Below the pieces are notes generated by a model. It ran no database searches. It was not told the origin of the DNA and worked only from the letters and a program-made list of their open reading frames with translations. A program made the position numbers and the translations under genes. A DNA stretch of 64,000 nt from Bacteroidales bacterium. Lineage in GTDB: Bacteria; Bacteroidota; Bacteroidia; Bacteroidales; ML635J-15. The stretch's first letter is position 1. Each line of letters begins with the position of its first letter. Positions 3,015 to 57,735 of the stretch are shown here, one piece after another. Location of the stretch: the NCBI GenBank assembly GCA_963676165.1, contig OY781043.1:294364-358363 (forward strand), read 5' to 3'.

Positions 3015-3160
3015 TTATCGAAATAAATTTGTACTTTTCGAAAAGAAACAAGCAAACTCGTTTATAAATGCTTACAAACAATTACAAATGCTTATTTCCG
3101 GATGGTAATCGATGGCTATTAAGTAGTTGTGAGAAGGGTGTGGTTATAAACGAGTTGTAA
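3015..3160 (+). repeat. Conserved ~150-bp non-coding element, copy A (hairpin CTCGTTTATAA...TTATAAACGAG ending GTTGTAA)
   Basis: It aligns by eye with 51813-51965. Shared parts are the leader TTATCGAAA..TTTCGA.AAGAAACAAGCA, 11-12 bp terminal inverted repeats, two internal AAATGCTTA(C) direct repeats, and a right end resembling the attC-like GTT core. Confidence 0.6.
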
Positions 3161-3204
3161 AACATTTGTCAGCCCATCTGCTAGTTATTGATAATTGAAA
3201 TATT

Positions 3205-3849
3205 ATGAGACTAAAACTTAATGGAAAAAAATATAGATATCGTCAGGAGTATTATAAGATTGAAGATGAACTGAAAGTAAAATTACCTTCTTATTCCATA
3301 AGTTATTCTGGCAAGGGTTTTTATAACGGTAAATGGCATCCATGTATTTTTCATTTCATAGATTCTTCAGGAAAAATGAAAATATTTATTTCTCCAGGAG
3401 GGGTATTTAAAGAAGGGATGTCTGACCTTGGCAAAGTGGATTCTCAGGGATTTGTAGATAAAATTGAGATTAAAGGTTTTAGGCGATTCCTTATTTTATT
3501 CTATGATTTTCTATTTCAAAAGAAACTTCAAATTTTAGGCATTATTGATAGAGCCAGCTTGATTAGGAAAAACTTAAGGTATATTTCCATTGCATTAATT
3601 GGTTCAATAATTTACTACCTGATTAATCACTTTTTGGATGGGTTCTTACAAGACTTGATAAATAAAAGTAACCTTGTTCAGTCTATAATAGTATTTCTCA
3701 GCTTATCAAGTATAGTTAATATATTCCACCCTTTTACTTTCCGTAAAGAGTTAAAGATTGAAGAAGTCGATGAACTGATTACAAAAAAGATACAGAAAGC
3801 TGAAAAAGAAGCAAAACGTAAGGAGGCAAATAAAAAATATTATCGATAA
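3205..3849 (+). CDS. Hypothetical membrane protein
   Basis: 214-aa ORF with hydrophobic segments (ISIALIGSIIYYLINHF, IIVFLSLSSIV) and a Lys-rich tail. Its stop lies 2 nt before the next ATG. Confidence 0.5.
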   Translation: MRLKLNGKKYRYRQEYYKIEDELKVKLPSYSISYSGKGFYNGKWHPCIFHFIDSSGKMKIFISPGGVFKEGMSDLGKVDSQGFVDKIEIKGFRRFLILFYDFLFQKKLQILGIIDRASLIRKNLRYISIALIGSIIYYLINHFLDGFLQDLINKSNLVQSIIVFLSLSSIVNIFHPFTFRKELKIEEVDELITKKIQKAEKEAKRKEANKKYYR

Positions 3850-3851
3850 TA

Positions 3852-4367
3852 ATGGAGAATGCGATAAAAAATAGAATACCGATTCATGTGGACTTAGAGC
3901 CAAATCGCGATGAAGTTTTTACAGGGATTTGTATAAAGGAAAATCATGAAGTCTTCATTTTTATTTGCTTCAATGAGGAGACAAAGGAATATGATGGATA
4001 CGCCATTTTGAGAAGTCAAGAAATAGAGCAGTATCGATATTGGGATAATGAGGAGCTAAGTGAGATTAAGACTGATAACCACATAGATTTCCTAAATAGA
4101 TTACCGCTGGATAAAATGAATTCATTCCATGAATGTTTAGTTGCATTAAGAGAAAAGGAATTGATTGCCATCTTTACATCAGACGATAATGATTCTTATT
4201 ATGTAGGAAGGATTAATAACCTATCTAATAGTAAGGTAACATTAAAGTTGCTGAGTGAATCTTCAGAGTGGCTGGATGAAAAGAAAATTGATATTGACAA
4301 TATTACGTACATTGGTTTTGATACCAGCTATGAGAAAGAGTTGATTAAAAACGTTTTACAACAATAA
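3852..4367 (+). CDS. Hypothetical cytoplasmic protein (probably co-transcribed with 3205-3849)
   Basis: 171-aa ORF, tightly coupled to the upstream ORF. Its stop codon overlaps the attC-like left core ACAACAATAA. Confidence 0.5.
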   Translation: MENAIKNRIPIHVDLEPNRDEVFTGICIKENHEVFIFICFNEETKEYDGYAILRSQEIEQYRYWDNEELSEIKTDNHIDFLNRLPLDKMNSFHECLVALREKELIAIFTSDDNDSYYVGRINNLSNSKVTLKLLSESSEWLDEKKIDIDNITYIGFDTSYEKELIKNVLQQ

Positions 4368-4486
4368 ATATACGTAATGCGGGGCGATTTTCTAAATTTG
4401 AACTTTAAAGCATTTAATAAACAACTTAGCGGTTTGATAGTGAAGTGCCTTGAAATCCCGCACTACGCATATTCGAGCCGTTATGG
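4358..4486 (+). repeat. attC-like imperfect inverted repeat, site D
   Basis: The left arm ACAAC-AATAAATATACGTAATGCGGGG pairs with the right arm CCCGCACTACGCATATT-CGAGCC-GTTATGG. It has the central motif CGGTTTGATAG. GTT lies 18 nt before the ATG at 4498. Confidence 0.6.
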
Positions 4487-5342: not shown

Positions 5343-5978
5343 ATGAACAGCACAACTTTAATAAGAGGAAAGAGAATGGGAAAAGTAATTTTTCGAAGTT
5401 TGTTGATGATATCTGTTTTGTTGAACAGTATTCAATGTACTAGGAGCCAACAAAACAGAAGTAAAGCAGTTGAATTGAATAACCAGGCTGTGGAATTTCA
5501 ACACCTAGGTCAAGAAGATAAAGCCATGGAATATTATGATAAGGCAATTAAAGCGGATGAAACATACTACATGCCTCATGCAAACAAGGTCGAAATCTAT
5601 TTGTCTCGTAATGAATATGAAAAAGCACTAAGCGAAAGTGAAATAGTGATCAAGAAAAAAACAGATTTGGCAGAGGGTTGGTTCTTTGCAGGTTTATTGC
5701 ACGACTACCTCGGAAATTCAAAAAAAGCACAATCTTATTATCTTCATAGTGTTAAAATCTATGATCAAAGAATAAGCAATACAGATGAGGAGGATAAGAT
5801 TGTAGCAAATAAGTTGAATCGAGCTATTGCCCTGATTTTTATCCTTGGTCGAGAGGGTGAAGGGAAAGCTGAGCTTGAGAAATTGAAAGAATCGGAGAGT
5901 ATTAGTAATGATTTTATTGATTATTTTATGCAAATTAGCAAAGAAGATTTGATGAATGATCTGATTGAAAGTGAATAA
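5343..5978 (+). CDS. TPR-repeat lipoprotein (alternative start 5376)
   Basis: 211-aa ORF. MGKVIFRSLLMISVLLNSIQC is a lipoprotein signal. TPR-like repeats are visible (AMEYYDKAIKADETYYMPHANK, AQSYYLHSVKIYD). Confidence 0.65.
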   Translation: MNSTTLIRGKRMGKVIFRSLLMISVLLNSIQCTRSQQNRSKAVELNNQAVEFQHLGQEDKAMEYYDKAIKADETYYMPHANKVEIYLSRNEYEKALSESEIVIKKKTDLAEGWFFAGLLHDYLGNSKKAQSYYLHSVKIYDQRISNTDEEDKIVANKLNRAIALIFILGREGEGKAELEKLKESESISNDFIDYFMQISKEDLMNDLIESE

Positions 5979-5991
5979 ATATTAAATATTA

Positions 5992-6287
5992 TTGTATCAA
6001 ACTGAAGACGGACAAACAAAAATTGATGTTCGATTAGAAGACGAAACCGTTTGGCTTACAATTAACCAAATGAGTGAATTGTTTCAGAAATCTCGTTCAA
6101 CCATAAATGAGCATATTATTAATATTTTTAATGAAGGTGAGCTCGAAAAAGAACAATCAATGAGAAAAATCGGAATTTCCGATTTTTCTACAAAGCCAAC
6201 CAATATTTATAATCTTGATGTGATTATTTCAGTTGGATATAGGGTTAAAAGCCATCAAGGAACAAAGTTTCGGCAGTGGGCAACTTC
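5992..6287 (+). pseudogene. rhuM-family gene, N-terminal fragment (interrupted)
   Basis: YQTEDGQTKIDVRLEDETVWLTINQMSELFQ...VGYRVKSHQGTKFRQWATS matches the RhuM N-terminus. The frame breaks at the insertion at 6288. Confidence 0.75.
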
Positions 6288-6469
6288 GGATCAAGCAAAA
6301 AAGTTGGGGGACATTGAATGTTTATTATGACCTATATTCTCAAATATTTGGATGGGCTATTTTTTTTGACAGTTCAGCTTATCATTACCAAAATCTGCGC
6401 TAGTCTAGTACTAGCCGCTTTTCGTAAAACTATAGATAGGTATCTGGTAATAATCTAGATACGAGTTTT

Positions 6470-8179
6470 GGCGCCAGACTGTCTAATAACCTTAATAAGT
6501 TTGTTAATAAAGATTTTGCATGAATTCATGTTAAAGGAAAGGATATTAGTACCTTACAATATGAAATTTATAAAAGGAGAAAGTAGGTATTTAAAAAGTC
6601 TATTCCCAGTATCTTTAGAAGAAAGCATTGGTGAGGATAATGAAATTCGCATTATTGACGCATTTGTTGATAATTTAAACTTTTCTGAATTGGGATTTAG
6701 AACACATTACAGAGAAACAGGTCGTCCGGCCTATCACCCCAAAGATTTACTAAAGCTATATATTTATGGATATATGAATAGCATTAGATCATCACGTCGG
6801 TTAGAAAAAGAATGCAAACGAAATATTGAATTGATGTGGCTTTTAAATAATTTGTCACCAGATCATAATACTATATCGAATTTCAGAAAGGACAATTCCA
6901 AATCAATAAAGAAAGTTTTCAGAGAGACGGTTAAGTTATCTCAGTATTTTGAACTTATTGGAGGCGAATTGGTTGCAGGAGACAGCACAAAGCTTAGAGC
7001 CCAGAATAGCAAAAAGAATAATTTCAATCAGAAAAAGATAGAGCGACATCAAGAATATATCGAAAGAAAAATAGAAGAATACGAACAAGAATTAAGTAAT
7101 AACGATGGTGATAATCAGGAAATATTAAAAAAGATTGAGAACAAAAAAGAACTTAAATCAAAGTACGACCGCATGTCTGAGGAATTAACTAGAGATAAAG
7201 AAACACAAATATCAACTAGTGATCCAGATAGTCGAAATATGACTCTTCGAAATAATATATCGGAAGTCGCTTACTGTGTTCAAAGTATGGTTGACGCTAA
7301 GCACAACCTGCTGCTGGACTTTATTGTGACGAACAAAGGTGATAAAAACGCAATGGGAAATATGTTGCAACGTACTAAGTCTATTTTACGTAATACTACT
7401 TTTACTGCTTTATTTGATACTGGATACCATTCAGGGAGAGAGCTAAAAAAAGCAGATGATTTAGGCATCAATGTTCTGGTAAATGTACCTTCTACACCAC
7501 ATGCAAACCAAATTCCTGACCCAAATTATTGTATAAGCAATTTTGTATATGACAAAGAAAATGACACATATACATGCCCAGAAGGTGAAATTTTAATAAC
7601 TAATGGGAATTGGTGTAACGCAAGAAATAAGAATGGAGAAGTTTATTACAGATTTAAAAACTATGGTACCGTTAAATGCAAAGAATGTCCCGTTAGGTCT
7701 AAGTGTACAATAAATAAAAAAGGTCGTAGAATAAAAAGAAGTGAATATGCCGAGAACATACAGTCTAACACGAAACGAATGATTGATTTAAAAGATAAAT
7801 ACCGGCAGCGGAAAAGCATAGTAGAACATCCATTTGGAACAATGAAACGACAATGGGGATACGACCACATAATAACGAAAAAATACATTAAACGAGCAAC
7901 AGCAGATGTTGGGTTGATTTTTTCATGCTATAATATCAAGCGATTAATAAATATTCTGGGAATTGATGCACTAATCGAATCTTTCAATAAGGGAAAGAGG
8001 TTTTGTGCTCAAATATTAACCAGATATGGAATCAAATTAAGACTTTTAAGACCTCTAAATTATTTACACAAACAAGGCTGCACAAAATCAATCCCTAATT
8101 ATTACTACTTATTTAGCAACTATAGGCTTATGAGGGCATGAATTTTTAGAAAATCTTAATTATCAGACAGTCTGGCGCC
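6470..8179 (+). mobile_element. IS1182-family insertion sequence
   Basis: The terminal inverted repeats GGCGCCAGACTGTCTAATAA (6470-) and TTATCAGACAGTCTGGCGCC (-8179) have one mismatch. They enclose a single DDE transposase ORF in 1710 bp. Confidence 0.8.
6561..8141 (+). CDS. IS1182-family (IS5/IS4-like DDE) transposase
   Basis: MKFIKGESRY...RIIDAFVD...TGRPAYHPKDLLKLYIYGY...SSRRLEKEC is the typical IS1182 N-terminus, and HPFGTMKRQWGY the typical C-terminal motif. The upstream TTG-started extension is probably not translated. Confidence 0.8.
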   Translation: MKFIKGESRYLKSLFPVSLEESIGEDNEIRIIDAFVDNLNFSELGFRTHYRETGRPAYHPKDLLKLYIYGYMNSIRSSRRLEKECKRNIELMWLLNNLSPDHNTISNFRKDNSKSIKKVFRETVKLSQYFELIGGELVAGDSTKLRAQNSKKNNFNQKKIERHQEYIERKIEEYEQELSNNDGDNQEILKKIENKKELKSKYDRMSEELTRDKETQISTSDPDSRNMTLRNNISEVAYCVQSMVDAKHNLLLDFIVTNKGDKNAMGNMLQRTKSILRNTTFTALFDTGYHSGRELKKADDLGINVLVNVPSTPHANQIPDPNYCISNFVYDKENDTYTCPEGEILITNGNWCNARNKNGEVYYRFKNYGTVKCKECPVRSKCTINKKGRRIKRSEYAENIQSNTKRMIDLKDKYRQRKSIVEHPFGTMKRQWGYDHIITKKYIKRATADVGLIFSCYNIKRLINILGIDALIESFNKGKRFCAQILTRYGIKLRLLRPLNYLHKQGCTKSIPNYYYLFSNYRLMRA

Positions 8180-8426
8180 TTCGCGTATTTTCTGTGATTT
8201 ATTGAGATGTGTTTGGAGTTTTTGAGCCGCGCATGCGAGCCTGTTTGCCATACTTGGCCGCTAAACAAAACGAGCTTTCTGCGGGTCACGGAAAACATAT
8301 CCAATAAATAAGAAAATTCGGGTCAGCGCCTGATTTTCTTTGCTAGCTTTCTTTCATCAGGAAAGAAAGCGAAGTTGAAAAATGTTAGGTATTAGTGGTT
8401 TGCCCCACAGGAATATTGCTTGATCC

Positions 8427-8840
8427 GCAACTTCTCGGTTAAAAGAATACATCGTTAAAGGATTTACCATGAACGATGATTTACTCAAACAGGCTGGTGG
8501 AGGTAATTACTTTGACGAATTACTAGCTCGTATCAGGGATATTCATTCATCAGAAAAAGTGTTTTGGAGAAAAGTTCTTGACATATATGCTACAAGTATT
8601 GATTATGACCCATCATTGGAGATGTCTGTAATGTTCTTCAAAACAGCTCAAAATAAAATGCACTGGGCAGCGCATGGGCACACAGCAGCTGAGATAATTT
8701 ATAATCGAGTGGACTCAGGGAAACCAAATATAGGACTGAGTAGCTTTAAAGGAAAGAATCCAACTAAACAGGAAACAGAGATTGTTAAAAAAAAGCGCCA
8801 ATTCCCCTTTCTGAAAATCAACGCTTTTTTGCTAATGTAA
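8427..8840 (+). pseudogene. rhuM-family gene, central fragment (3'-truncated)
   Basis: (S)RLKEYIVKGFTMNDDLLKQAGGGNYFDELLARIRDIHSSEKVFWRKVLDIYATSIDYD is RhuM-like. Similarity ends near 8795 (EIVKK), where a hairpin AAAAGCG...CGCTTTT follows. Confidence 0.7.
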
Positions 8841-8929: not shown

Positions 8930-11314
8930 ATGACCAATATGGATGATTATCAGTTTAAAGGAAAACGCGTTTTAATTCGTGTCGATTTCAATGTCCCTTT
9001 GAATGAAAATGGTGAAATAACCGACGATACACGAATTGTAACAGCCGTGCCTACAATTCAAAAAGTGCTTACTGAAGGCGGTTCTGTCATCATCATGACA
9101 CATCTTGGCCGTCCGAAAGGACAATTTAATGAGGCTTTAAGTGTAAAACGCATCTCTGATTATGTGTCCGGAATGCTAGGTCGTGAAATTATTGTTGCGG
9201 AAGATTGCATAGGCAAGGAAACGGAAAAACTGGCAGCATCACTCAAAAAAGGACAGGTGCTCATGTTGGAAAATCTTCGTTTTTATAACGAGGAAACTGC
9301 CGGCGATGAGGAATTTGCGAAAAAATTGGCCAAACTTGGTGATGCTTATATCAATAATGCCTTTGGAACTGCCCATCGTGCGCACGCATCCACCTACACC
9401 ATCGCGAAATTTTTCCCTTACGACAAAATGTTGGGATATTTGGTGGAGTCTGAAGTGAAAAACATTGATAAACTCCTGAAAAAAGCCAAATCACCCTTTA
9501 CTGCAATCATTGGAGGAGCAAAAATTTCCACAAAAATTGACATCATCGAAGCCTTGATGGAGAAAGTGGATAATTTAATCATTGGTGGGGGTATTGTCTT
9601 TACCTTTCTGAAAGCCAAAGGACTAGAAGTTGGAAATTCTTTGGTTGATGATGATTATATTGAGGTGGCAAAACGTATTCTTGACACAGCTCGTGAACGA
9701 AATGTCAAAGTGTATCTCTCAGAAGATGTGTTGATTGCAGATAATTTTAGCAATGAAGCCCAGATAGAGCATGTTCCTGTTTCTGCCATCAAACCCGGTT
9801 GGATGGGAATGGATATTGGTGTAAAATCTGCTGAATTGTTTGAGCAGGTCATTGAAAATTCTGAAAGCATTTTGTGGAATGGTCCTATGGGCGTCTTTGA
9901 AATGCCTCACTTTGCTTATGGTACGCTGAAAACAGGTTTGTCTGTGGCACGTGCTACCGATAAAGGTTCTTACTCTTTGGTTGGTGGAGGTGATTCCATT
10001 GCTGCCTTAAAAAAGTATGCATTGGAACATAAAATTTCTTATGTCTCAACTGCAGGTGGAGCCTTACTGGAGTATATTGAAGGGAAAAAATTGCCAAGTT
10101 TACGCGCAATTAGGGAAACTCACAGCATGGATGATTACGATTTCCGTGGAAAACGTGCTCTTGTTCGTGTGGATTTCAATGTCCCTATGGATGAGAATTT
10201 CAAGATTACCGATGATACACGTATCCGTACTGCGATTCCAACGCTTCGGAAAATTCTTGCAGAAGGAGGATCTATCATTCTTTTAACTCACATTGGCCGT
10301 CCGAAAGGTCAGCGAATGGATAAATATTCTGTTCGACATATTATTCCTTATGTTTCGGATTTGCTTGGTACCGAAGTGCAATTTGCAGATCGTTGTCGTG
10401 GCGATAATACTGAGAAAATTGCAAAACAGCTTAAGCCTGGCGAAGTGCTGATGCTTGAGAACCTCCGCTTTACCAATGAAGAAATTGAGGGAAGTGAAAG
10501 TTTTGCTGAAGAATTAAGTCGTCTTGGGGATGTGTACATCAATAATGCCTTTGGTACAGCGCATCGTGCACATGCTTCAACATATACCATTGCAAAATTC
10601 TTCCCTGAAGATAAAATGCTTGGATATCTGATTGAAAATGAAATTAACAACATCAATCGCATATTGTACAAAGCTGAGCGTCCGTTTACCACTGTCATTG
10701 GGGGATCAAAAATCTCAACTAAAATCAATATCATTCGTGCTTTGATGGATAAAGCCGATAATGTGATTATTGGTGGCGGGATTGCCTTTACCTTTATCAA
10801 AGCCATGGGTGGAAATATTGGAGATTCTCTCGTTGAGGAGGATTCATTGGATGTGGCACGTGAAATACTTGATTATGCTGCACGTAGCTCAGTGAAATTG
10901 TATCTTCCAACAGATTGTTTGATTGCCGATGCATTTGAGAAAAACCCAAAAATTCGTCATGCCAAAGCAAACAATATTCCTGACGGATGGAGGGGTTTAG
11001 ATATCGGTGTGAAAACAGCGGAAACCTATACGAAAGTGATAGAAAACTCCAACGCTATTCTTTGGAATGGTCCGATGGGAGTATTTGAAATGCCGTATTT
11101 TAGTAACGGAACAATCAAAATATCTCTGGCAACAGCGCGTGCAACCGATATGGGAGCGTTTTCACTTGTTGGTGGTGGAGATTCTATTGCAGCACTAAAA
11201 CGCTATGGTATGAGTCATAAAATTTCGTATATTTCAACTGCGGGAGGTGCTTTGCTTGAGTACATTGAAGGAAAAGAATTACCAAGTTTAAAAGCAATAC
11301 GCACAAAGATATAA
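8930..11314 (+). CDS. pgk: Tandem-fused phosphoglycerate kinase (two complete PGK modules: residues 1-399 and 400-794)
   Basis: Both halves carry VRVDFNVP, TH(L/I)GRPKG, ENLRF, NNAFGTAHRAHAS, GG(A/S)KISTKI, WNGPMGVFE, GGGDS and STAGGA. There is no stop between IRETHS and the MDDYDF at 10127. Confidence 0.85.
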   Translation: MTNMDDYQFKGKRVLIRVDFNVPLNENGEITDDTRIVTAVPTIQKVLTEGGSVIIMTHLGRPKGQFNEALSVKRISDYVSGMLGREIIVAEDCIGKETEKLAASLKKGQVLMLENLRFYNEETAGDEEFAKKLAKLGDAYINNAFGTAHRAHASTYTIAKFFPYDKMLGYLVESEVKNIDKLLKKAKSPFTAIIGGAKISTKIDIIEALMEKVDNLIIGGGIVFTFLKAKGLEVGNSLVDDDYIEVAKRILDTARERNVKVYLSEDVLIADNFSNEAQIEHVPVSAIKPGWMGMDIGVKSAELFEQVIENSESILWNGPMGVFEMPHFAYGTLKTGLSVARATDKGSYSLVGGGDSIAALKKYALEHKISYVSTAGGALLEYIEGKKLPSLRAIRETHSMDDYDFRGKRALVRVDFNVPMDENFKITDDTRIRTAIPTLRKILAEGGSIILLTHIGRPKGQRMDKYSVRHIIPYVSDLLGTEVQFADRCRGDNTEKIAKQLKPGEVLMLENLRFTNEEIEGSESFAEELSRLGDVYINNAFGTAHRAHASTYTIAKFFPEDKMLGYLIENEINNINRILYKAERPFTTVIGGSKISTKINIIRALMDKADNVIIGGGIAFTFIKAMGGNIGDSLVEEDSLDVAREILDYAARSSVKLYLPTDCLIADAFEKNPKIRHAKANNIPDGWRGLDIGVKTAETYTKVIENSNAILWNGPMGVFEMPYFSNGTIKISLATARATDMGAFSLVGGGDSIAALKRYGMSHKISYISTAGGALLEYIEGKELPSLKAIRTKI

Positions 11315-11334
11315 TGCAAATAAACTAAGCTATT

Positions 11335-12633
11335 ATGGAAATTAATTTGCCGAAAATTCAAGATGCTGACCTGAATGGAAAAGTTGTCCTTGTTCGTGTC
11401 GATCACAATGTGGTGAAAAAGGGTGTGATTCACGATCCTTACCGTATTGACGCAACGATTGGAACCCTGTATCATATCAATGCAAAGGGCGGGAAAATCA
11501 TTTTAATGACACACGTGGGAAGACCGCGTGACAAAAAGGACAATAGCATTCATATTAGTGATGATACTTCGGTAAAACCCATTGTCGATTACTTAAACAA
11601 CAAATTGCATATCAATATTCAGATACCGGAATTTGTACCGCATGGCGATCAAGGATATTTGGGCTTGGAGACTTCCATTAACCACATGATTCGTGAACTT
11701 CGAAATGGCGATATCGATGGAATTTACTTACCAAATACACGTTGGTTTGCCGGTGAAGAAGCAGATGGCGATGTGTCAGATCGTTTTGGATTGCAGCTAG
11801 CTGGTTTAGCAGATGTGTTTGTCAACGATGCATTTGGATCATGGCAACCTCACACTTCAACGGTGAAAGTCAACGATTATTTGCCTTCTTATGCAGGATA
11901 TCTCATGCAAAAGGAAATTGCTAATTTAGAGCGTATTTATAAAGCTGAGCATCCTTTTGTGGCAGTGGTTGCAGGGAGTAAAATGGACACGAAAATTGAG
12001 TCCCTTTATGCGCTTTTAAAAATTGCTGATAAATTGGTTTTGGGCGGTGTCATTTACAATGCCTATTTGTGCGCAAAATATGGAATTCGAATCAAAGGAG
12101 TTGATGAGGGGAACTTGGCACTTGCAAAAGAGTTTGTGAAATATGCTGAGGATTATTCTGATAAGATTTTGGAGCTGGAATACATCATTGAATCTGATAT
12201 TTTGGAAGGCAAAGAAAATGGAAAATACAGAATGCATCACATTCAGGACTTAAAAGAGGATCAGGAATTGAACTATGTGTTGGATGTTGCTCCAGAGTCC
12301 TTTCATCAAGAAAATGTTTGTCAGGTATTTAAAAATGCTAAGACAATTTTTATCAATGCAGTTATGGGTTTTACTCCGCATTTTAATGATGGAACCATTG
12401 CATTGGATGAGCTAACAGATTCAAATTTGGATGCTGTGAAGTTATACGGTGGTGGAGATACCATGCAAGAGTTAAAACGTTTACTCCCAGGTTTGTATAT
12501 TGTCGCTTTGGACAATCCAAAATACTACATTTTCACCGGTGGTGGTGCAGTGCTAAAAGCCATACAAGAAGGAACCTATGCAGGCTTAGAGCCCGTAAAG
12601 GCTTTGGTTGAAAACCAGAAAAAGAATCTGTAA
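11335..12633 (+). CDS. Divergent phosphoglycerate-kinase-like paralogue
   Basis: It keeps VRVDHNV, THVGRP, NTRW, VNDAFGS, AGSKMDTKI, GGGDT and TGGGA. It has SWQPHTS in place of AHRAHAS and INAVMGFTP in place of WNGPMGVFE. It starts 20 nt after the fused pgk. Confidence 0.7.
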   Translation: MEINLPKIQDADLNGKVVLVRVDHNVVKKGVIHDPYRIDATIGTLYHINAKGGKIILMTHVGRPRDKKDNSIHISDDTSVKPIVDYLNNKLHINIQIPEFVPHGDQGYLGLETSINHMIRELRNGDIDGIYLPNTRWFAGEEADGDVSDRFGLQLAGLADVFVNDAFGSWQPHTSTVKVNDYLPSYAGYLMQKEIANLERIYKAEHPFVAVVAGSKMDTKIESLYALLKIADKLVLGGVIYNAYLCAKYGIRIKGVDEGNLALAKEFVKYAEDYSDKILELEYIIESDILEGKENGKYRMHHIQDLKEDQELNYVLDVAPESFHQENVCQVFKNAKTIFINAVMGFTPHFNDGTIALDELTDSNLDAVKLYGGGDTMQELKRLLPGLYIVALDNPKYYIFTGGGAVLKAIQEGTYAGLEPVKALVENQKKNL

Positions 12634-12640
12634 AGAAGTT

Positions 12641-12691
12641 CCGCTTTTGGACATGATTTTTGCAAAAAAAGCAAAAACTCACGCCAAAAGC
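12641..12691. repeat. REP-like palindromic intergenic repeat, copy 1
   Basis: CCGCTTTTGGACATGATTTTTGCAAAAAAAGCAAAAACTCACGCCAAAAGC. The same family occurs at 38732-38786 (inverted) and 50919-50983. Confidence 0.8.
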
Positions 12692-38731: not shown

Positions 38732-38786
38732 GCCGCTTTTGGCATGAATTTTTGCTTTTATTTTGCAAAAATCATGTCCAAAAGCG
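38732..38786. repeat. REP-like palindromic intergenic repeat, copy 2 (inverted orientation)
   Basis: GCCGCTTTTGGCATGAATTTTTGCTTTTATTTTGCAAAAATCATGTCCAAAAGCG. Confidence 0.8.
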
Positions 38787-41883: not shown

Positions 41884-41963
41884 CTTATTTAAGAAAATGG
41901 CAAAATATTTAATTAGTGAAATCCTTAATTAAAAAAATCGGGTATTTCTTAATTAAGGAGTTT
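41884..41963 (+). repeat. ~80-bp AT-rich direct repeat R1 (partner 45275-45356)
   Basis: CTTATTTAAGAAAATGGCAAAATATTTAATTAGTGAAATCCTTAATTAAAAAAATCGGGTATTTCTTAATTAAGGAGTTT. By eye it is about three-quarters identical to R2. Each copy is itself two ~40-bp half units. Confidence 0.75.
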
Positions 41964-42050: not shown

Positions 42051-43487
42051 TTATTCCTCTGCCCACTTGTCCGGTAGCAGTTCTCTCAATTTCTCGTTGG
42101 TCATTTGTTGATTTTCGGCTAAACGCTGTATTACGTCTTTGAAGTAAGAAAAAGTATTTACATTGTTCAGACGGCATGATATGGCGATAGAATACAGCGT
42201 AGCAGTTCTCTCTGCCCCGTTGTTTGAGCCACAGAAAAGTGAATTGCGACGGCTGATGCTAATGTAACGCATGGGGCGTTCAATCGTATTGTTGTCCAAG
42301 TCGTAATCGGAAGATATTATAATGTTGTAAATCGATTCCAGTTCATTGAGACAATATGCAGTAGCCTTGCTCAAAATAGTATTGCCCAACGTGTCGGAAT
42401 CCTGTTCTATCTTTCTGAGTTCTTTTTCCAAAGCATTGTAAACTTTCAGTGATTCTTCTTTCCACTTCTCTTTGGGCTTTTTCTTTCGGATAATGTAAAG
42501 TTGGTTGTACAGATCGATAATCACTTCTGCTTTTGGTTGCTCTTTGATTTCAATAAACTTTCGTTTGCAATGTTGCACACAACCTAAGCGTATTGCTTTG
42601 GGGTAATTCCATCCTTCCAGTACTTTGTATGAGCTGTACCCATCAGTTTGAACAGCACCATTATAAGTTTCAGGTAAGTAATTTGTCAATACGTTTTTGC
42701 TCCGTGAACCATTTTCGTAAATAAATTGGATCAAATTATTTTGGTGAGATAACACACTCCAAAAATAACCTTTACGACTTCCGTTGTCACCACCTAATAT
42801 GGTGTGATAAGTTTCATCAAAATGGATGTAAGCATCTGAAAGAATAGCATCTTTGAGAACAGGTGTTAACTTATCGAGCAGTGCTGCCGATTTTTCTATC
42901 AACCCATGAAGCGTTGCTTTGGGAATATCAATCCCCATTTCATTCAGATACTTCATTGTCCGTTCAACAGGCATTCCATAAACATACCGTTGTTGAATCA
43001 GGTAGGCTAAAAATGAAGCATCAAAGTTAGAATTTAGAAATGGAGCGATGGGAGCTTTCCCCTCAAAAAAAACATCGCCCATCCTGTATTTTTTACACCG
43101 ATAAATATGTTTTATCAGGCGTGGGGGGATATACTCATACCTTATCACATCTTTGTGAAACAGGAAAACAGCAACCTTTTCGTCAAATTCGGCATCAGAA
43201 GGCAAAACATCATCAATAACTTCTTCTATATTGTCATAAGCCTTTCTTTTTGCACCATTGTTGCCGCGTTTTTTTGGCGTGGGAGCCGGATGTTTTTCCT
43301 TTCCCTTGCGTTTTTCAGTCTTTTTAGGGAGATTGACGCTTGCAAACTGCTTCATCTTTTCAGCGTTTTTATCCTTCTCCAAGAGTGCCGCCTTTAAAGA
43401 TGCCACCTCTTGAGATAGAGAGGTAATTGTAGCAGTCAATGCTGAAACTTGTTGTTGTAAAAATATCACTAACTCCCTGTCTGTCAT
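42051..43487 (-). CDS. IS66-family transposase (TnpC)
   Basis: 478-aa ORF with an N-terminal coiled coil/leucine zipper. The DDE core contains HFDETYH, QTDGYSSY and CVQHCKRKF. Confidence 0.85.
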   Translation of the reverse strand: MTDRELVIFLQQQVSALTATITSLSQEVASLKAALLEKDKNAEKMKQFASVNLPKKTEKRKGKEKHPAPTPKKRGNNGAKRKAYDNIEEVIDDVLPSDAEFDEKVAVFLFHKDVIRYEYIPPRLIKHIYRCKKYRMGDVFFEGKAPIAPFLNSNFDASFLAYLIQQRYVYGMPVERTMKYLNEMGIDIPKATLHGLIEKSAALLDKLTPVLKDAILSDAYIHFDETYHTILGGDNGSRKGYFWSVLSHQNNLIQFIYENGSRSKNVLTNYLPETYNGAVQTDGYSSYKVLEGWNYPKAIRLGCVQHCKRKFIEIKEQPKAEVIIDLYNQLYIIRKKKPKEKWKEESLKVYNALEKELRKIEQDSDTLGNTILSKATAYCLNELESIYNIIISSDYDLDNNTIERPMRYISISRRNSLFCGSNNGAERTATLYSIAISCRLNNVNTFSYFKDVIQRLAENQQMTNEKLRELLPDKWAEE

Positions 43488-43561
43488 AGCTTAAAGATAC
43501 AAAAATAATATGGTTTTACTATGGAAAAAACATATTATTTTTGCATCTTTTTTACTCTTTT

Positions 43562-43924
43562 TCAGATACTTAGCATGACTTTCAGACGAAGCTCATTTGA
43601 ATTGCTTTTTTGTTTTATCGCATTGACGATCTGGTCAAGAAGACCTCTCTCTACCTCAAAGAAGGGGGTATCTCCTACCTGTCGAGGCAGGGTATAACGA
43701 CCCAGTTCCAATTTTTTGTTGTAAAGCACGAATCCTTCTTTTTGCCATCGTAATACCTTTAACGATTTACGTGTCCTACCAATAAAAACATAACCATCGC
43801 CAGTGAGCGCATCCATATTACCTGTTGTTTTTACCAAATGATATAACGAATGGATTCCTTTTCGCATATCAACTGGCTCTCTGTAGAAATAAAAACGGGT
43901 AGTGTCATTAAAGTTAAAAATCAT
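43562..43924 (-). CDS. IS66 Orf2-like accessory protein (TnpB)
   Basis: REPVDMRKGIHSLYHLV...FIGRTRKSLKVLRWQKEGFVLYNKKLE is the typical IS66 Orf2 signature. Confidence 0.85.
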   Translation of the reverse strand: MIFNFNDTTRFYFYREPVDMRKGIHSLYHLVKTTGNMDALTGDGYVFIGRTRKSLKVLRWQKEGFVLYNKKLELGRYTLPRQVGDTPFFEVERGLLDQIVNAIKQKSNSNELRLKVMLSI

Positions 43925-44120
43925 AGTACATCCTTTTTGAAAATTATGGATGTAAAAATCGAAAGTTTTATCCCGTAAAACTATACGTCATCGTGGAGAC
44001 GGATACGTTTTAGAGGAGCCTTTTGGCAATCTGTAAGGTTCAGGGATGAGCTTTTTGTTTTAATGTGGACGATTTAGCTAAGCGGGACGAGATGGAGGAA
44101 ATGTCAAAAAGAAAAATAAC

Positions 44121-45245
44121 TTAATCAAATAATTCCAGATATTCTCTAAAAACGAATAACTTCCCTCTTTTTCCACCTGTAATTTCCTCAAGAATTTTTA
44201 ATTCTTCGAGCTCGTTAATTGTTTTATAAACTGAAGGAAGGGATAGTTTTGTTATTTGTTTAGCTATTTGTGCGTTAATTATTGGTTTTTGAAATAAATG
44301 GTTGATTATTTGCATTGCATTGTTTGAGCGATTTCCTAAGCTTTGTATCTTAGTTTCTATTTCTTTCTGCAACTTTAAAATGCCATCAAATGTTTTAATA
44401 CTATTTTGAGCCGTTTCAATTACTCCAACTAAAAAGAATTTAAACCATTGTATAATATCATCTTTCTCTCTGACTCGCATTAAGTTATCGTAATATAAAG
44501 TTCTGTTTCTTTCGAAAAAATCTGAAAGGTATAATATAGGCTTTTTAAGTATCCCTTTTTCAACCAAATATAAAGTAATCATCAAACGTCCAACCCTTCC
44601 ATTACCATCTAAGAAAGGATGAATTGTTTCAAATTGATAATGAATAAGTGCAATTTTTAATATGTCAGGGAAATAAAATTCCTCCGAGTGTGCGAACTTT
44701 TCAATATCACTCATGTAATCATTGACTGTGTCAAATGATGGCGGAATAAATGTTGCATCACTTATTGTCGCTCCACCAATCCAGTTTTGACTCGTTCTGA
44801 AACAACCTGGCAATTTATATTTTCCTCTTACACCAGCTAATAGAGTTTTATGAGTTTCTTTGATCAACCTTGATGAAAATGGTAGTTTTTTTAGATTCTC
44901 AATAGCAGAGTTTAATGCAATTATATAATTTTGAACTTCTTCCCAATCATTTCTTTTTTCTTCATTAACGTCTTCTTTGTCAAGCAATGCATCTTCAATA
45001 TTTGTTTTTGTTCCTTCAATTTTGTTTGATTTTGTTGCTTCTTTTGCAATGTGCATGCTAATAAACAAATCAATATTGGGAATGTATTCAGAATACATGT
45101 CTAATCGTCCAAGTTGTCTGTCAGCTTTACTTAACAGATTAATTAATTCCATGTTTTCCAATACCCATTGTTTATTAATTTTTTCAGGTTGGAAACTTTT
45201 ATAAGTCCCTTGGTTTATATAACGACCTGCTTTGAAATTTTTCAT
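44121..45245 (-). CDS. Fic-family protein (AMPylase-type) with a C-terminal wHTH
   Basis: It has the Fic motif HPFLDGNGRVGRLM. At 374 aa it has the usual Fic/DOC N-terminal helical region. Confidence 0.85.
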   Translation of the reverse strand: MKNFKAGRYINQGTYKSFQPEKINKQWVLENMELINLLSKADRQLGRLDMYSEYIPNIDLFISMHIAKEATKSNKIEGTKTNIEDALLDKEDVNEEKRNDWEEVQNYIIALNSAIENLKKLPFSSRLIKETHKTLLAGVRGKYKLPGCFRTSQNWIGGATISDATFIPPSFDTVNDYMSDIEKFAHSEEFYFPDILKIALIHYQFETIHPFLDGNGRVGRLMITLYLVEKGILKKPILYLSDFFERNRTLYYDNLMRVREKDDIIQWFKFFLVGVIETAQNSIKTFDGILKLQKEIETKIQSLGNRSNNAMQIINHLFQKPIINAQIAKQITKLSLPSVYKTINELEELKILEEITGGKRGKLFVFREYLELFD

Positions 45246-45274: not shown

Positions 45275-45356
45275 CTTTATTTAAGAAAATAGCAAATAAA
45301 TTAATTAGCGAAGTTGTTTATTTAAGAAAAATGCGAATTTATTAATTAAGGGGTTT
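45275..45356 (+). repeat. ~80-bp AT-rich direct repeat R2 (partner 41884-41963)
   Basis: CTTTATTTAAGAAAATAGCAAATAAATTAATTAGCGAAGTTGTTTATTTAAGAAAAATGCGAATTTATTAATTAAGGGGTTT. It lies immediately upstream of fic on that gene's strand. Confidence 0.75.
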
Positions 45357-45381
45357 CTTGTTTAAAGCATTCTGATTTGCT

Positions 45382-50918: not shown

Positions 50919-50983
50919 GGGGTGCCGCTTTTGGACATGATTTTTGCACTAAAAAGCAAAAATTCATGCCAAAAGCGGCACCC
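50919..50983. repeat. REP-like palindromic intergenic repeat, copy 3 (most complete)
   Basis: GGGGTGCCGCTTTTGGACATGATTTTTGCACTAAAAAGCAAAAATTCATGCCAAAAGCGGCACCC. Confidence 0.85.
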
Positions 50984-50999: not shown

Positions 51000-51614
51000 T
51001 TATATTGGCTGGTAGGAAATATAATCCGACCAGAAAGGTCCTTTTCCAATGCTTCCTTTACGGATGGGTGCATGTTGAATACATGTTTTGAATTCCTTAT
51101 AGCTAAATGATTTTTTGAGTTTTGGAGCAATGCGAGCAAGAGTTCCTCTGCGCAAATCGGTTAAAATAATGATGCCCTCTGGTTTACATACACGCTCTAA
51201 TTCGGCGAGCATTTTTTCCGGGTTTTCTACAATGTGAAGCACAAAGCTACTGACAACACAATCGAAACTATTGTCAGGAAAGGCAGAAAGATTTTCTACA
51301 TTTGCTATGGATAAATCGATACGAGATTGCATATTTTGCGCCTGGACAAATTTGTTTCCCAGATCAATTAATGGCTCAGAGAGATCGACAGCATGGATGT
51401 GAATTTCGGGACAGTATTTGGCTATTTGCATGCTTACCCCAGCAAATCCACAACCGGCATCCAGCACTTTTATGCCGTTAAAATTGTGTTGTTTAAGTAT
51501 TCTGCAAATACGTTTTCCCACTTTGCGGTTATTCTTTTTGTTACGCTCATAATAGCCCATTGCCCATGTACTATCGTTAAATACTCTCGGATGATTTAAA
51601 GGGTTTCTTTTCAT
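51000..51614 (-). CDS. Class I SAM-dependent methyltransferase
   Basis: Motif I is VLDAGCGFAG, followed by a post-I acidic residue (HAVDLS) and then FDCVVSSFVLHIV. Confidence 0.8.
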   Translation of the reverse strand: MKRNPLNHPRVFNDSTWAMGYYERNKKNNRKVGKRICRILKQHNFNGIKVLDAGCGFAGVSMQIAKYCPEIHIHAVDLSEPLIDLGNKFVQAQNMQSRIDLSIANVENLSAFPDNSFDCVVSSFVLHIVENPEKMLAELERVCKPEGIIILTDLRRGTLARIAPKLKKSFSYKEFKTCIQHAPIRKGSIGKGPFWSDYISYQPI

Positions 51615-51812: not shown

Positions 51813-51965
51813 TTATCGAAAATATCTCTACCTTTCGAGAAGAAACAAGCACAAGCACGCTCGTTTATAAATGATTACATTTATTTATAAATACTTACCA
51901 TGCAGTTGATATTGATTGATTGTTAGGTGTTTGTGAAAGGAGTTGTGGATATAAACGAGTTATGC
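51813..51965 (+). repeat. Conserved ~150-bp non-coding element, copy B (hairpin CTCGTTTATAA...ATATAAACGAG ending GTTATGC)
   Basis: It is homologous by eye to 3015-3160. Its right end GTTATGC is identical to the right core of attC-like site F. It sits at the left border of array 2. Confidence 0.6.
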
Positions 51966-52064
51966 ACAAGTAAAGAGAATTACTGCAAAAAGGTATGAAT
52001 TGTTAAAATTGAATTGATTTCGGCTGTAATGAAAAAAAGCGTAAATTTGTAAAAAGAGATAATC

Positions 52065-52286
52065 ATGGATATCCAAACAAAGAAATATCATTTGATAGAG
52101 TGGATTACGCAAATAAGGGATTCGCAGCTTCTCGACAAGTTGATGCGGCTTGCTACAGAAAATGATTGGTGGGAAGAAATAAGTCAGTCAGAGCGAGATG
52201 CCATAGAAGAAGGTTTGCGAGATTTGTCAAAAGGGAATTTACATGATCATTCAGAAGTGAAGAAGCTTTATGAAAGATATCACTAG
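52065..52286 (+). CDS. Putative antitoxin (addiction-module component)
   Basis: 73-aa acidic ORF that overlaps the following RelE/ParE toxin ORF by 17 nt. Confidence 0.6.
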   Translation: MDIQTKKYHLIEWITQIRDSQLLDKLMRLATENDWWEEISQSERDAIEEGLRDLSKGNLHDHSEVKKLYERYH

Positions 52287-52569
52287 GGTTGTATGGTCAG
52301 ATCGGGCTGTCTCTGATTTGAAAAATATCATTAATTACCTTGAAGACAATTGGACGCAAAAAGAGATAAATAAATTTACGCTAAAACTTGAAAAACAAAT
52401 TTCAATAATAAAGGAGCATCCGAAAGCTTTTGTTGCTACTAATCACAATAATGTTAGAAGAGCAGTAATGACAAAACAAGTAACACTTTATTATGATTTA
52501 GAAGAATCGACAATTAGAATCGTAACATTATTTGATACACGTCAAAGTCCGACCGAATTGCAATTCTAA
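52270..52569 (+). CDS. Type II toxin, RelE/ParE family
   Basis: 99-aa ORF. W..RA..DL..I..Y and the C-terminal IRIVTLFDTRQSP are typical of ParE/RelE-like toxins. Confidence 0.7.
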   Translation: MKDITRVVWSDRAVSDLKNIINYLEDNWTQKEINKFTLKLEKQISIIKEHPKAFVATNHNNVRRAVMTKQVTLYYDLEESTIRIVTLFDTRQSPTELQF

Positions 52570-52612
52570 AACATTTTGCAGATAATAAAAAACTTTTAGA
52601 AAGAATACCAGT

Positions 52613-52694
52613 GCATAACAATAAATATATATCAGCTGCGCGAGTTTGATACGCAATAGTGGCGCAGCCGCTACATATTTGCATACCGTTATGC
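52613..52694 (+). repeat. attC-like imperfect inverted repeat, site F
   Basis: GCATAAC (52613-52619) and GTTATGC (52688-52694) are perfect complements. The inner pairs are AAATAT/ATATTT and CTGCGC/GCGCAG. GCATACC is unpaired next to the right core. The central motif is GAGTTTGATAC. Confidence 0.65.
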
Positions 52695-53146: not shown

Positions 53147-53262
53147 AGCTGACACTGTATATACAAGGTAGGCGGAATGGTAGTAAATTCAACGGTTGTA
53201 GCCCGCTTAAAATTATCTCGGTTTGATACATTTGAAGCCCGCAATCGCCTACATTTGCATAC
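53139..53262 (+). repeat. attC-like repeat, site G (left and central part; the right core is displaced to 54348-54360 by the intron)
   Basis: ATAAC overlaps the TAA stop. The sequence aligns along its length with site H (ACACTGTATAT..GTAGTAAATTCAA..TCGGTTTGATA..CGCAATCGC..CATTTG). It is broken after GCATAC. Confidence 0.65.
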
Positions 53263-54347
53263 GTGTGCCAAGAAGCAGTACATCGGCATTAAACAGTACT
53301 GCATGCTTTAATTGAGATGGTGGAATCCGTCAGTTGACGGATGATCCCCCCGAAGTCGATTTCCAGGAAAGGGCTTCAACCCACCTAAAGATGCTGTGTT
53401 GAAGAAGCATGGTATTGAGCGTTTAGGAAAATACAGTCCATGAGACTGTCAGGAATGTGTACAGGAGATGAACGAAAGAGAACCATTGATGAAGAGTCGA
53501 GAAAGTGGAATCCTCAGTCAAAATCCGTATAAGTATGAATGCGGTTATAAGTGCAACGGTTACCTGTTTATTGGTTGCACGATTGGCGTCATTTAGATGG
53601 CATGAACTGTACACAGGCTCAGTTAAGGAACTTGGGAATCTGATCGGGAATGTAAAGGGAAGCACAATAAAATCAATCTAGAGGCGAAATACCAAAAACC
53701 CGAATCAGAGACGGACTAACCCGTAGTAGTGATGAATTCCTGTAATGGGAATAGAGCAAAGGGGTTAGGTTATACAGAGTCATAACATTTAACAACTTGT
53801 AAGAGGATGAATTTATGGAATGAGACAAAATCAGTACCGATAAGTCGCCAAATGATTTGGCAGGCTTATAAGAAAGAGAAAGCCAACAAAGGAAGTGCAG
53901 GTGTCGATTCAGTAAGCATGGAGATATTCGATGCAAACAGAAGTAAACACTTGTATAAACTTTGGAATCGAATGATATCGGGGAGTTATTTCCCTCCACT
54001 AGTCAAAGAAGTTGAGATTCTTAAAAAAGACGGCAAAGTCCACAAGTTAGGTATTCTAACAATAGCAAATTTCGTGGATACGAACTGTCAAGAGTATTTT
54101 ATCTGCTACGATGTCGACTGGTACGCTGGGCACGAAAACGGTATAAACGCTACAGAATAAGTTTGACAAGAGTCTGTAAATTGTTATACAGGGTTAGGAA
54201 GCAATATCCTTATCTGTTTTATCACTGGCAATTAGGATTTTCAAATTAAAAGTAGCAGATTTGTATAACAAGAGCCGTATGACGGGAGACTATCACGTAC
54301 GGTTCTGTGAGAGGCTTAGGGTGAAACTCCCTTTACCTATTCGACAC
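53263..54347 (+). mobile_element. Group II intron, ORF-deleted derivative (bacterial class C-like)
   Basis: The 5' end is GTGTG. The RT N-terminus (53807-54070) reads SAGVDSVSMEIF...YFPPLVKEVEILKKDGKVHKLGI. The IEP C-terminal remnant is RWARKRYKRYR...YPYLFYHWQLGFSN* (about 54125-54250). Domain V is GAGCCGTATGACGGGAGACTATCACGTACGGTTC (54272-54305). A domain VI-like stem follows. The proposed 3' end ...CGACAC is inferred by alignment of the flanks to site H. Confidence 0.75.
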
Positions 54348-54395
54348 TTGTCCGTTGTAGTTAATGCAAAAGAGAGTTTCGTTCAAAATGAAACT

Positions 54396-56530: not shown

Positions 56531-57610
56531 ATGAGAATGAACTATGAATTCAAATATCTTATTGCAGGAATAATTATATTGATTTCATTAAATCAATCAT
56601 CTGGACAAGAAATTAAGATTTCTGAAAATCTTGTTTTGTACAAATTGTCAGAATGTTGTTATGAGCATACTCAAAAGGGTAATAACGGATTGGTTTACAT
56701 AAATAATGGAGAAGCTGTTATTGTTTCAACTCCCGATTCAGATACCGAAACTCAAAATTTAATAGATTGGGTTCGAAATGAACAACACGCTAAAATTGTT
56801 GCTTACGTAATTGACAGATGGCATCCCGATGCAATGCAGGGTTTAGATGTCGTTAAAAAAAATGACATAAAAAGCTATGCTTATGAATTAACCCGACAGA
56901 TAGCCAAAGAAAAAGGGTTGCCTGTTCCTGAATTTGGGTTTAATCCTAAAAAAGAGATAAAAGTTGGAAATCAAAAGATAATTTGTCATTTTCTGGGAGA
57001 GTCACATACACCGGATGGGATTGTTGTTTGGATTCCAAATGAACAAATACTCTTTGGCGGAAATGAAATTCGGAATTATAACGGTTGGGTTGGAAATATT
57101 GGCGATGCAAACCTTGAAAAATGGTCAGAAACAGCAAAAAACATTAAAAGAGAATATGGCTCTGCTAAAGTTGTAGTCCCGGGACACGGGGAATATGGTG
57201 GCTCTGAATTAATTGATTACACGATTGATTTGTTCAGCCTTCCCCAAAACGAATTGTTTATTGATAGTACTGAGACTGTTGTTGCTTTTAACAAAAAAAC
57301 AGAAGATGAATTTATTGTGAAAGCTGAATTTGATTCAATTCAAGACGGGAAACGTATTTTAAAAAATGCGACTGTAATAATTCAGGATAAAACAAAATTT
57401 ATAGAGATTGAATCTCCTCAGATTAATATTTCTATGGACAACACAAAAATTGATTCTGAAATTGGAAGAGTAAAAATTTATGACAAGAAAACAGACTGTG
57501 AAGAGTTAAGAACGGATGTGAATTATAGAAAACTAATCATTTATAAATATGACGAAGACACTGTTGGATTTGTAGTAATATTGAAGGGAATAGAAAATAA
57601 CAATCGTTAA
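56531..57610 (+). CDS. Subclass B1 metallo-beta-lactamase-like secreted protein with non-canonical metal ligands and a C-terminal extension
   Basis: GESHTPDGIVVWIPNEQILFGGNEI and VVPGHGEYG align with the B1 motifs GHT.DN.VVW.P....LFGGC..K and PGHG. The HxHxD position reads RWHPD, and the Cys of GGC is Asn. About 125 extra C-terminal residues follow. Confidence 0.6.
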   Translation: MRMNYEFKYLIAGIIILISLNQSSGQEIKISENLVLYKLSECCYEHTQKGNNGLVYINNGEAVIVSTPDSDTETQNLIDWVRNEQHAKIVAYVIDRWHPDAMQGLDVVKKNDIKSYAYELTRQIAKEKGLPVPEFGFNPKKEIKVGNQKIICHFLGESHTPDGIVVWIPNEQILFGGNEIRNYNGWVGNIGDANLEKWSETAKNIKREYGSAKVVVPGHGEYGGSELIDYTIDLFSLPQNELFIDSTETVVAFNKKTEDEFIVKAEFDSIQDGKRILKNATVIIQDKTKFIEIESPQINISMDNTKIDSEIGRVKIYDKKTDCEELRTDVNYRKLIIYKYDEDTVGFVVILKGIENNNR

Positions 57611-57735
57611 CACTGTATATGTAAAATAGATGGAATTGTAGTAAATTCAAGGAGCTTAGCTCGCTTTGAAGTTGTTTCGGTTTGATAGTTTTGTAGTCCG
57701 TAATCGCTCCATTTGTATATACTTGACCGTTACAA
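57597..57735 (+). repeat. attC-like imperfect inverted repeat, site H
   Basis: ATAACAAT overlaps the stop codon region. The arms are GTATATGTAAAATAGATGGAATTGTAG and TCCGTAATCGCTCCATTTGTATATAC. The central motif is TCGGTTTGATAG. The right end is TTGACC-GTTACAA, 21 nt before the ATG at 57750. Confidence 0.65.

Follow-up and report, generated by a model that had tools for sequence, protein, structure and literature searches.

The window, a stretch of 64,000 nucleotides from a Bacteroidales bacterium, contains two copies of a gene-less element of about 145 nt whose right edge coincides to the base with the G|TT crossover of an integron-type gene cassette. The reading that we favor, at a probability of about one half, is that the element may be an attI-equivalent insertion platform which can itself be copied as a cassette-like unit. 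The same junction is seen in each of 21 further full copies recovered from metagenomes, with a turnover of the cassettes downstream, and several copies stand at the very start of an array. The element shares part of its geometry with the regular attC sites of these arrays and differs from them in pairing, arm sequence and strand preference.

Architecture of the element and of the arrays around it

Copy A (3015-3154) and copy B (51813-51959), both on the + strand, are ~80% identical over ~145 nt in a pairwise alignment, and their flanks are unrelated on either side. An nhmmer profile recovers the two with E-values of 3e-32 and 9e-31, respectively, and finds no third copy in the window; the leader 19-mer TTTCGARAAGAAACAAGCA has two exact occurrences against 0.19 expected. 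The first-pass annotation, made from the letters alone, had described two copies of ~150 bp without an ORF, and they are indeed the sole copies in the window, with no conserved ORF in any frame.

The leader of copy A (3015-3054) contains TCGAAA at 3018-3023 and 3038-3043, 20 nt apart, a perfect Bacteroidetes -7 box TAAATTTG (3024-3031) that is found in this copy only, and the linker AAGAAACAAGCA (3043-3054). It is followed by the left arm AACTCGTTTATAA (3055-3067), which has a core-like AAC-N2-GTT layout, and the element closes with the right arm TTATAAACGAG (3144-3154), the crossover falling between G3154 and T3155. The leader of copy B (51813-51859) has TCGAAA at 51816-51821, TCGAGA at 51835-51840 and the same linker, here followed by a 6-nt insertion; its left arm CTCGTTTATAA (51860-51870) is preceded by the triplet CGC and not AAC, and its right arm ATATAAACGAG (51949-51959) ends at the crossover G51959/T51960. 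The inverted repeat formed by the arms, given as 11-12 bp in the first reading, is perfect in both copies: 13 nt in copy A (AACTCGTTTATAA/TTATAAACGAGTT, 100% complementary, 3055-3067 and 3144-3156, 76 nt apart) and 10 nt in copy B (CTCGTTTATA/TATAAACGAG, 80 nt apart). The leader described earlier is present in both copies and its pattern ...TT(T/G)CGA(A/G)A(A/G)(G/A)AAAC... is kept in the metagenomic family, though TCGAAA...TCGAAA can equally be read as a direct repeat ~20 nt apart.

The paired internal direct repeats of the first reading are also real. They are AAATGCTTAC at 3066 and AAATGCTTAT at 3086 in copy A and AAATGATTAC and AAATACTTAC in copy B, spaced 19-20 nt start to start, and both extend to a 9-mer, TTAYAAAYG, which occurs three times per copy in direct orientation. 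In copy A the 9-mers are TTATAAATG (3062-3070), TTACAAATG (3082-3090) and TTATAAACG (3144-3152); in copy B they are TTATAAATG (51865-51873), TTATAAATA (51885-51893) and ATATAAACG (51949-51957). The third one lies within the right arm and abuts the crossover, and an AAC-GA-GTT layout accompanies the three 9-mers. Both window copies and the main metagenomic group keep these 9-mers, which are partly degenerate in locus L048. The left flank of copy A is non-coding and rearranged, with no convincing attC just upstream of the copy.

An attC site has the order R'' (RYYYAAC), L'', L', R' (GTTRRRY), with an unpaired central spacer and extrahelical bases, and its bottom strand is the folded substrate; the opening bases of a gene cassette complement its own R''. 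The regular attCs of the window show R'' (....AAC), an unpaired spacer, L''/L' arms and R' (GTT....), and the surroundings of the two copies are genuine integron-type cassette arrays. The first cassette after copy A (3155-4480, + strand) starts with TTGTAA, carries ORFs at 3205-3849 and 3852-4367, and is closed by a regular attC at 4356-4486 (+ strand) with its crossover G at 4480; this attC reads R'' TTACAAC (4356-4362), AATAAAT, L''...L', TCGAGCC and R' GTTATGG. The first cassette of array 2 (51960-52688, + strand) starts with TTATGC, encodes an antitoxin (52065-52286) and a ParE-family toxin (52270-52569), and is closed by an attC at 52613-52694 (+ strand) that runs from R'' GCATAAC (52613-52619) to R' GTTATGC, with its crossover G at 52688. 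Copy B had been placed at the left border of array 2, in front of a toxin-antitoxin cassette, and its crossover and the antitoxin/ParE cassette do follow directly on the 3' side. Further regular attCs of the window are located near 70-205, 1324-1400, 53147-53262 and 57603-57731.

Copy A ends in ...TATAAACGAG|TTGTAA and copy B in ...TATAAACGAG|TTATGC. GTTGTAA is the exact complement of the R'' TTACAAC (4356) in the attC that closes the cassette after copy A, and GTTATGC is the exact complement of the R'' GCATAAC (52613) in the attC that closes the cassette after copy B. Since the bases after the G perfectly complement R'' of the next cassette's attC, the right edge of the element is a true cassette crossover. 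Such complementarity is the signature that a circular cassette recombined between G and TT would leave, and it implies that the element owns only the G, the TTnnnn being that of the downstream cassette. The GTTGTAA/GTTATGC motif previously assigned to the element as its right core can be kept for the G alone; the rest is cassette-derived.

The same holds beyond the window. Conservation stops directly after G|TT in 23 of 23 full copies (21 metagenomic ones plus A and B), and 15 different GTTnnnn 7-mers follow them, corresponding to different cassettes. The reverse complement of GTTnnnn is found downstream at 14 of 22 junctions, both window copies included, and a clear attC hairpin begins exactly at 13 of these 14 matches, the one in L046 looking like chance; the junctions that fail are mostly on contigs that end too early. 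At the matched junctions the attCs are usually ~131 nt long and end in ...ACCG|TT.

A closer comparison of the hairpin of the element with these regular attCs revealed a common geometry, AAC-N6-ATA...TAT-N6-GTT, and AAC...GTT ends save for the CGC of copy B, together with several clear differences. The hairpin has a fully paired spacer and lacks extrahelical bases. Scored with arm PWMs built from 12 attCs of the same arrays, its 5' arm gives -10 to -26 and its 3' arm -15 to -23, against leave-one-out medians of ~+15 and +8 for real attCs and background means of -9.5 and -6.7. The bases at the crossover are GAG|TT in the element versus CCG|TT in the attCs. The R''-like 7-mer of the element is CACTAAC, AGCAAAC or AGCACGC and does not complement TTGAAC, with which its unit begins, whereas in regular cassettes of the same loci R'' and the cassette start are complementary at 7 of 7 bases. 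Finally, the element folds better on the top strand, whereas for six out of seven regular attCs the bottom strand folds at least as well as the top one.

No integrase or tyrosine recombinase is encoded by the window ORFs scanned against Pfam (those of at least 160 aa, minus seven mostly very large ones), which comprise housekeeping functions and three transposases. Neither was an integrase detected in the scanned ORFs of 12 loci or within ~5 kb of four array starts. The earlier observation that no integrase gene adjoins either copy is upheld to that extent, that is, among the scanned ORFs of the window and of the 12 loci.

Metagenomic relatives and the edges of the repeated unit

The metagenome search relied on a pattern based on the stem, which would match either orientation of the interior, and returned 19 loci with 21 full copies and one partial copy; the invariance of the basal stem in this set is partly by construction, as the pattern demanded the stem. 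Among 185,579 representative genomes the leader 19-mer gave 30 matches, all of them chance occurrences inside unrelated genes, and no copy was found in viral contigs (two patterns) or in PLSDB plasmids (two queries). An exact-match look-up of window proteins yielded no recorded sequence; for the window genome there is one named distant homologue, with 46% identity, from a Bacteroidales MAG. The metagenomic hosts appear to belong to the FCB/Bacteroidota group, given the T9SS sorting domains in flanking genes.

The first-pass annotation had called for a scan for further copies and their flanks, and had named two outcomes that would speak against it: a random, MITE-like scatter with target-site duplications, and a lack of conservation in related arrays. 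All 21 additional full copies lie at cassette crossovers, which together with the window makes 23 of 23 copies at cassette junctions, and the element is kept in other arrays. The cassettes behind the metagenomic copies include Gabija GajA and GajB (L032), Zorya type II (L044) and GmrSD (L039), and others carry type I, II and III restriction-modification (R-M) systems, a trypsin-like protease and non-defence genes. In L032, L044, L039 and L046, the last with a type I R-M system, a whole defence system of 2 to ~4 kb or more forms a single cassette bounded by G|TT, and the closing attCs are uniform, ~131 nt in length with ACCG|TT at the end.

In seven metagenomic copies the conserved block is larger, ~340 nt, and starts at a crossover of its own, ...(variable attC end)G|TTGAACTACATC... 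This internal unit extends from ...G|TTGAAC... to ...GAG|TT and comes straight after the attC of another cassette; with G|TT bounds on both sides, it is a gene-less cassette by operational definition. Locus L043 packs three copies into 2.7 kb, in the order element-cassette-attC-element-cassette-attC-element, and two are present in L031. The statement that the element occurs once in each array is thus correct for the window and does not extend to its metagenomic relatives, in which the unit recurs between cassettes.

Copy B, the L040 copy and the first L031 copy are located at array starts, contain only the 3' 150-220 nt of the unit and do not have G|TT bounds on both sides. Their neighbors are non-cassette genes, namely a methyltransferase gene for copy B and a radical-SAM gene for L040, and at 2110-2290 (oriented) of L031 the first copy abuts a tRNA- or tmRNA-like 3' end, recognized by eye, and a T9SS-tailed gene. 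At the array end of L047, only the first ~58 nt of the unit are present, directly after the last attC and followed by a truncated chromosomal gene. The contexts of the L031 start and the L047 end suggest that whole arrays may have inserted into chromosomal sites. From array start to array end, repeated insertion into a site of the attI type would be expected to leave such an A...cassettes...B layout as its trace, and the internal unit is the B+A junction of that layout. Nothing in the window corresponds to the 5' part of the metagenomic unit. We also noticed that the gene in which the L047 array ends (6965-7797, oriented) encodes a secreted beta-propeller protein with a signal peptide, without the T9SS sorting domain that its neighbor has.

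Two pairs of contigs bear on the edges of the unit. L038 and L047 are 100% identical over 1.5 kb upstream, 99% identical through the 340-nt unit and unrelated after G|TT. For L031 and L038 it is the other way round: their upstream sequences are unrelated, and identity starts with the unit and continues beyond it. Both edges consequently look like breakpoints, with the reservation that contig pairs differing on one side of a repeat could be assembly chimeras, because assemblers can misjoin at repeats.

Sister strains provide a further comparison at the locus of copy B. Three Logan contigs (L050-L052) carry an orthologous methyltransferase of the same 90%-identity protein cluster, whose window orthologue is at 51000-51614. 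They retain the leader (...TCATCGAAAATATCTTTACCTTTCGAGAAGAAA), after which only a degenerate remnant of the hairpin is left, and no attC sites are visible at the locus. Beside the methyltransferase there is a Schlafen-like helicase operon in L050, an unannotated gene of 384 aa in L051 and a DNA methylase in L052; the same locus in the window genome holds the ParE cassette array. That other defence-type genes occupy the locus in these strains despite the degenerate hairpin speaks against the insertion-platform reading. An intact hairpin thus co-occurs with attC cassettes.

The insertion-platform reading, its rivals and known systems

In the mechanism that we propose for an insertion platform, an integron-type tyrosine recombinase encoded elsewhere in the genome, and so acting in trans, would bind the three direct 9-mers TTAYAAAYG and cleave between G and TT at the 3' edge of the right arm. 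The element would be joined to the folded attC of a circular cassette, and the new cassette would come to lie immediately 3' of it with its genes reading away. The site would be built on an attC-like template (AAC-N6-ATA...TAT-N6-GTT) with a fully paired central spacer, and the module plus a short flank from the array end would be copied as the ~340-nt unit with G|TT on both sides. That the unit is copyable would explain the relatives with several platforms per array, each of which heads its own, often multi-gene, defence cassette. The element may in addition contribute to cassette transcription. A stronger version, which we regard as unlikely, makes the module a 'portable attI', self-contained and integrase-less, that the cassette machinery would move and that would seed sub-arrays both at chromosomal sites and inside arrays and give each defence cassette its own site of insertion and expression.

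The main alternative, possible if somewhat unlikely, is a gene-less cassette in which the hairpin is the cassette's own atypical attC, kept for a promoter or another cis function, the copies at array starts being truncated at the 5' end. This explanation and the platform overlap. The internal ~340-nt units, which begin with G|TTGAAC after another attC, end in GAG|TT and sit between many different pairs of cassettes, are what it predicts, and so are the AAC...GTT termini with the local attC geometry AAC-N6-ATA/TAT-N6-GTT and the lack of a conserved ORF; gene-less cassettes with promoter activity are documented as well (PMC11014356, PMC6557892). It fits less well with an R''-like box that does not complement the unit start, where R'' of regular cassettes does so at 7 of 7 bases, with a hairpin that has neither unpaired spacer nor extrahelical bases and arm PWM scores at background, and with the missing AAC of copy B. 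The 5' part of the unit is missing from three to four independent array starts and is all that one array end has of it, a distribution that is likewise difficult to reconcile with this explanation. As for the suggested cis function, scans for a Bacteroidetes -7 box and for sigma-70 yielded no consistent promoter across the family. The proposal of an ORF-less cassette carrying a promoter or small RNA is accordingly retained for the G|TT bounds of the internal units and finds no positive support for its promoter or RNA part, for which there is no consistent promoter, no Rfam match and no significant covariation.

An RNA function would make the junction position secondary: the element would be a structured 5' leader, or a small RNA, that is co-transcribed with the next cassette and stabilizes or regulates its mRNA. 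We hold this to be quite improbable as the main role, although it may coexist with a platform or a gene-less cassette. Folding of both strands, which had been recommended earlier, gives -30.7 and -34.8 kcal/mol for the + strand versus -18.0 and -15.2 kcal/mol for the - strand (+ strand z-scores of -3.9 and -4.8), G-U pairs that extend the stem are kept on the + strand, and the element is always upstream of the next genes and co-oriented with them. However, Rfam 15 has no match at the gathering threshold and only chance-level snoRNA/miRNA hits at E<=10. Covariation in the small alignment is not significant, with 136-220 of 500 shuffles reaching the observed values, and the basal stem is conserved in sequence, without covariation, in a set where it is partly fixed by the search pattern. 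Nor was a terminator found, and conservation that ends to the base at the crossover would be left unexplained. A non-autonomous mobile element (MITE or IS remnant) or an invertible promoter switch is very improbable and largely refuted. Perfect inverted repeats of 10-13 nt that are 76-80 nt apart, many copies in metagenomes and IS elements in the window are features one would expect of it, but all 23 copies are at a cassette crossover and none has target-site duplications. Conservation continues leftward beyond the inverted repeat for another 45 to 240 nt, viral contigs and plasmids are free of copies, and none of the 23 copies has its interior inverted, although the search pattern catches either orientation; the element is therefore not an inverton. 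Among other candidates considered, an intrinsic terminator was rejected for want of a U tract, a retron ncRNA for want of an adjacent RT, and an IS200/605- or IS110-type guide RNA for want of an adjacent TnpB, IscB or IS110 recombinase.

The insertion-platform reading invites comparison with attI. The attI1 paradigm is a site of 65 bp with DR2, DR1, an L box and an R box GTTRRRY; a canonical attI adjoins intI, usually in divergent orientation, and is present in one copy per integron. We know of no attI site with an inverted repeat of ~100 nt. In attI1, direct repeats accompany a crossover at the G of GTTRRRY (PMC12901181). The element is similar in its location at a 5' array boundary, as seen for copy B, L040 and the first L031 copy, in a crossover that follows the G of GTTRRRY, in the TTnnnn that comes from the first cassette, in upstream direct repeats that resemble the crossover arm, and in an original right flank found at the far end of the array. 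It is dissimilar in having no adjacent intI, as judged from the scanned window ORFs and ~5 kb around four array starts, in its ~100-nt attC-like inverted repeat with a perfect stem of 10-13 bp, and in its copy number, which is three in L043 and two in L031, compared with one per array in the window. It has no sequence similarity to attI1, and binding by an integrase is putative. Of the attI-like organisation suggested in the first reading, the G|TT crossover, the array-start position and the conserved direct repeats stand; the lack of intI at four array starts, the attC-like inverted repeat and the copies inside arrays depart from it.

The integron platform with its cassettes, gene-less promoter cassettes and delta-attI cassettes are already known. 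Delta-attI cassettes, in which attI-derived sites occur inside arrays, are documented for mobile integrons (PMC12901181). Those of class 1 and 2 mobile integrons resemble the present case in having an attI-derived site within an array, a downstream recombination site and attC cassettes around it. They are short attI remnants that, in Proteobacteria, take the place of the attC in a resistance gene cassette (PMC12901181), whereas the unit described here is gene-less, ~340 nt long, highly conserved and repeated in chromosomal arrays of an FCB-group bacterium. The gene-less promoter cassettes of Vibrionaceae superintegrons and oral metagenomes (PMC11014356, PMC6557892) are likewise free of ORFs, bounded by crossovers and located among coding cassettes, and both they and the element may drive expression of the downstream cassette; they end, however, in an ordinary attC of the host array, while the site of the element differs from the local attC family. 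The attCs of sedentary chromosomal integrons, such as the Vibrio VCRs, share with it an inverted repeat with AAC...GTT, a length of ~100 nt, conservation within the lineage and the G|TT crossover, and are set apart by the element's lack of an unpaired spacer and of extrahelical bases, its R'' mismatch to its own start and its top-strand folding. As runs of attC-bounded cassettes with no integrase nearby, the window arrays are similar to the CALIN of IntegronFinder, which is defined without a head element, whereas these arrays start at a conserved head module.

Complete integrons are reported to be almost absent from Bacteroidetes genomes (IntegronFinder 2.0 preprint), Bacteroidota are cited as a clade previously found to be without integrons, and the reported size of integron cassettes is significantly below that of typical genes. 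Against this background, this genome and related metagenomic bacteria contain bona fide attC-bounded cassettes, including whole defence systems of 2-4 kb, in arrays that begin with a conserved module distinct from both a canonical attI and the local attCs. In the literature searched, we found no description of a repeated perfect-stem head module combined with the lack of an adjacent integrase, large defence cassettes and an FCB-group host. If the element is an insertion site, it would offer a sequence handle for finding the responsible recombinase, a means of mining metagenomes for defence cassettes by anchoring on ...TATAAACGAG|TT, and a route to how integrase-less arrays (CALINs) are built and kept active. 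The 'portable attI', if real, would have been found in a phylum from which integrons are reported to be almost absent.

Other repeats and mobile elements of the window

A direct repeat of ~150 nt (2751-2900 and 5929-6045) brackets copy A, its cassette and four more genes. Its first 63 nt are 95% identical, and it comprises the 3' end of a TPR gene and the start of a RhuM gene, which suggests either a duplication or a segment of ~3.2 kb integrated by recombination. The RhuM-family gene (5992-8840) is split into an N-terminal piece (5992-6330) and a C-terminal piece (8469-8840) by an IS with a DUF772/DDE transposase (6468-8141).

Group IIC-attC introns target attC sites. A group II intron with a similar layout is located at 53263-54350, directly 3' of the attC-like site at 53147-53262; Rfam places its domains D1-D4 at 53336-53454 and D5-D6 at 54270-54345, and its reverse-transcriptase ORF seems truncated.

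Three tandem phosphoglycerate-kinase-like units with a period of 1188 nt occupy 8930-12633. Units 1 and 2 form one fused ORF of 794 aa, and the third (11335-12633) matches Pfam PGK. A palindromic repeat, GCCGCTTTTGGACATGATTTTTGC...GCAAAAA...GCCAAAAGCGGC, is found after convergent genes at 12638-12677, 38732-38755 and 50922-50961 and is possibly REP-like or terminator-like. An IS66-family transposase (42051-43487), with a small ORF upstream, adjoins the gene of a Fic/DOC protein (44121-45245), and the region (42051-45245) is flanked by AT-rich repeats at 41885 and 45277-45370.
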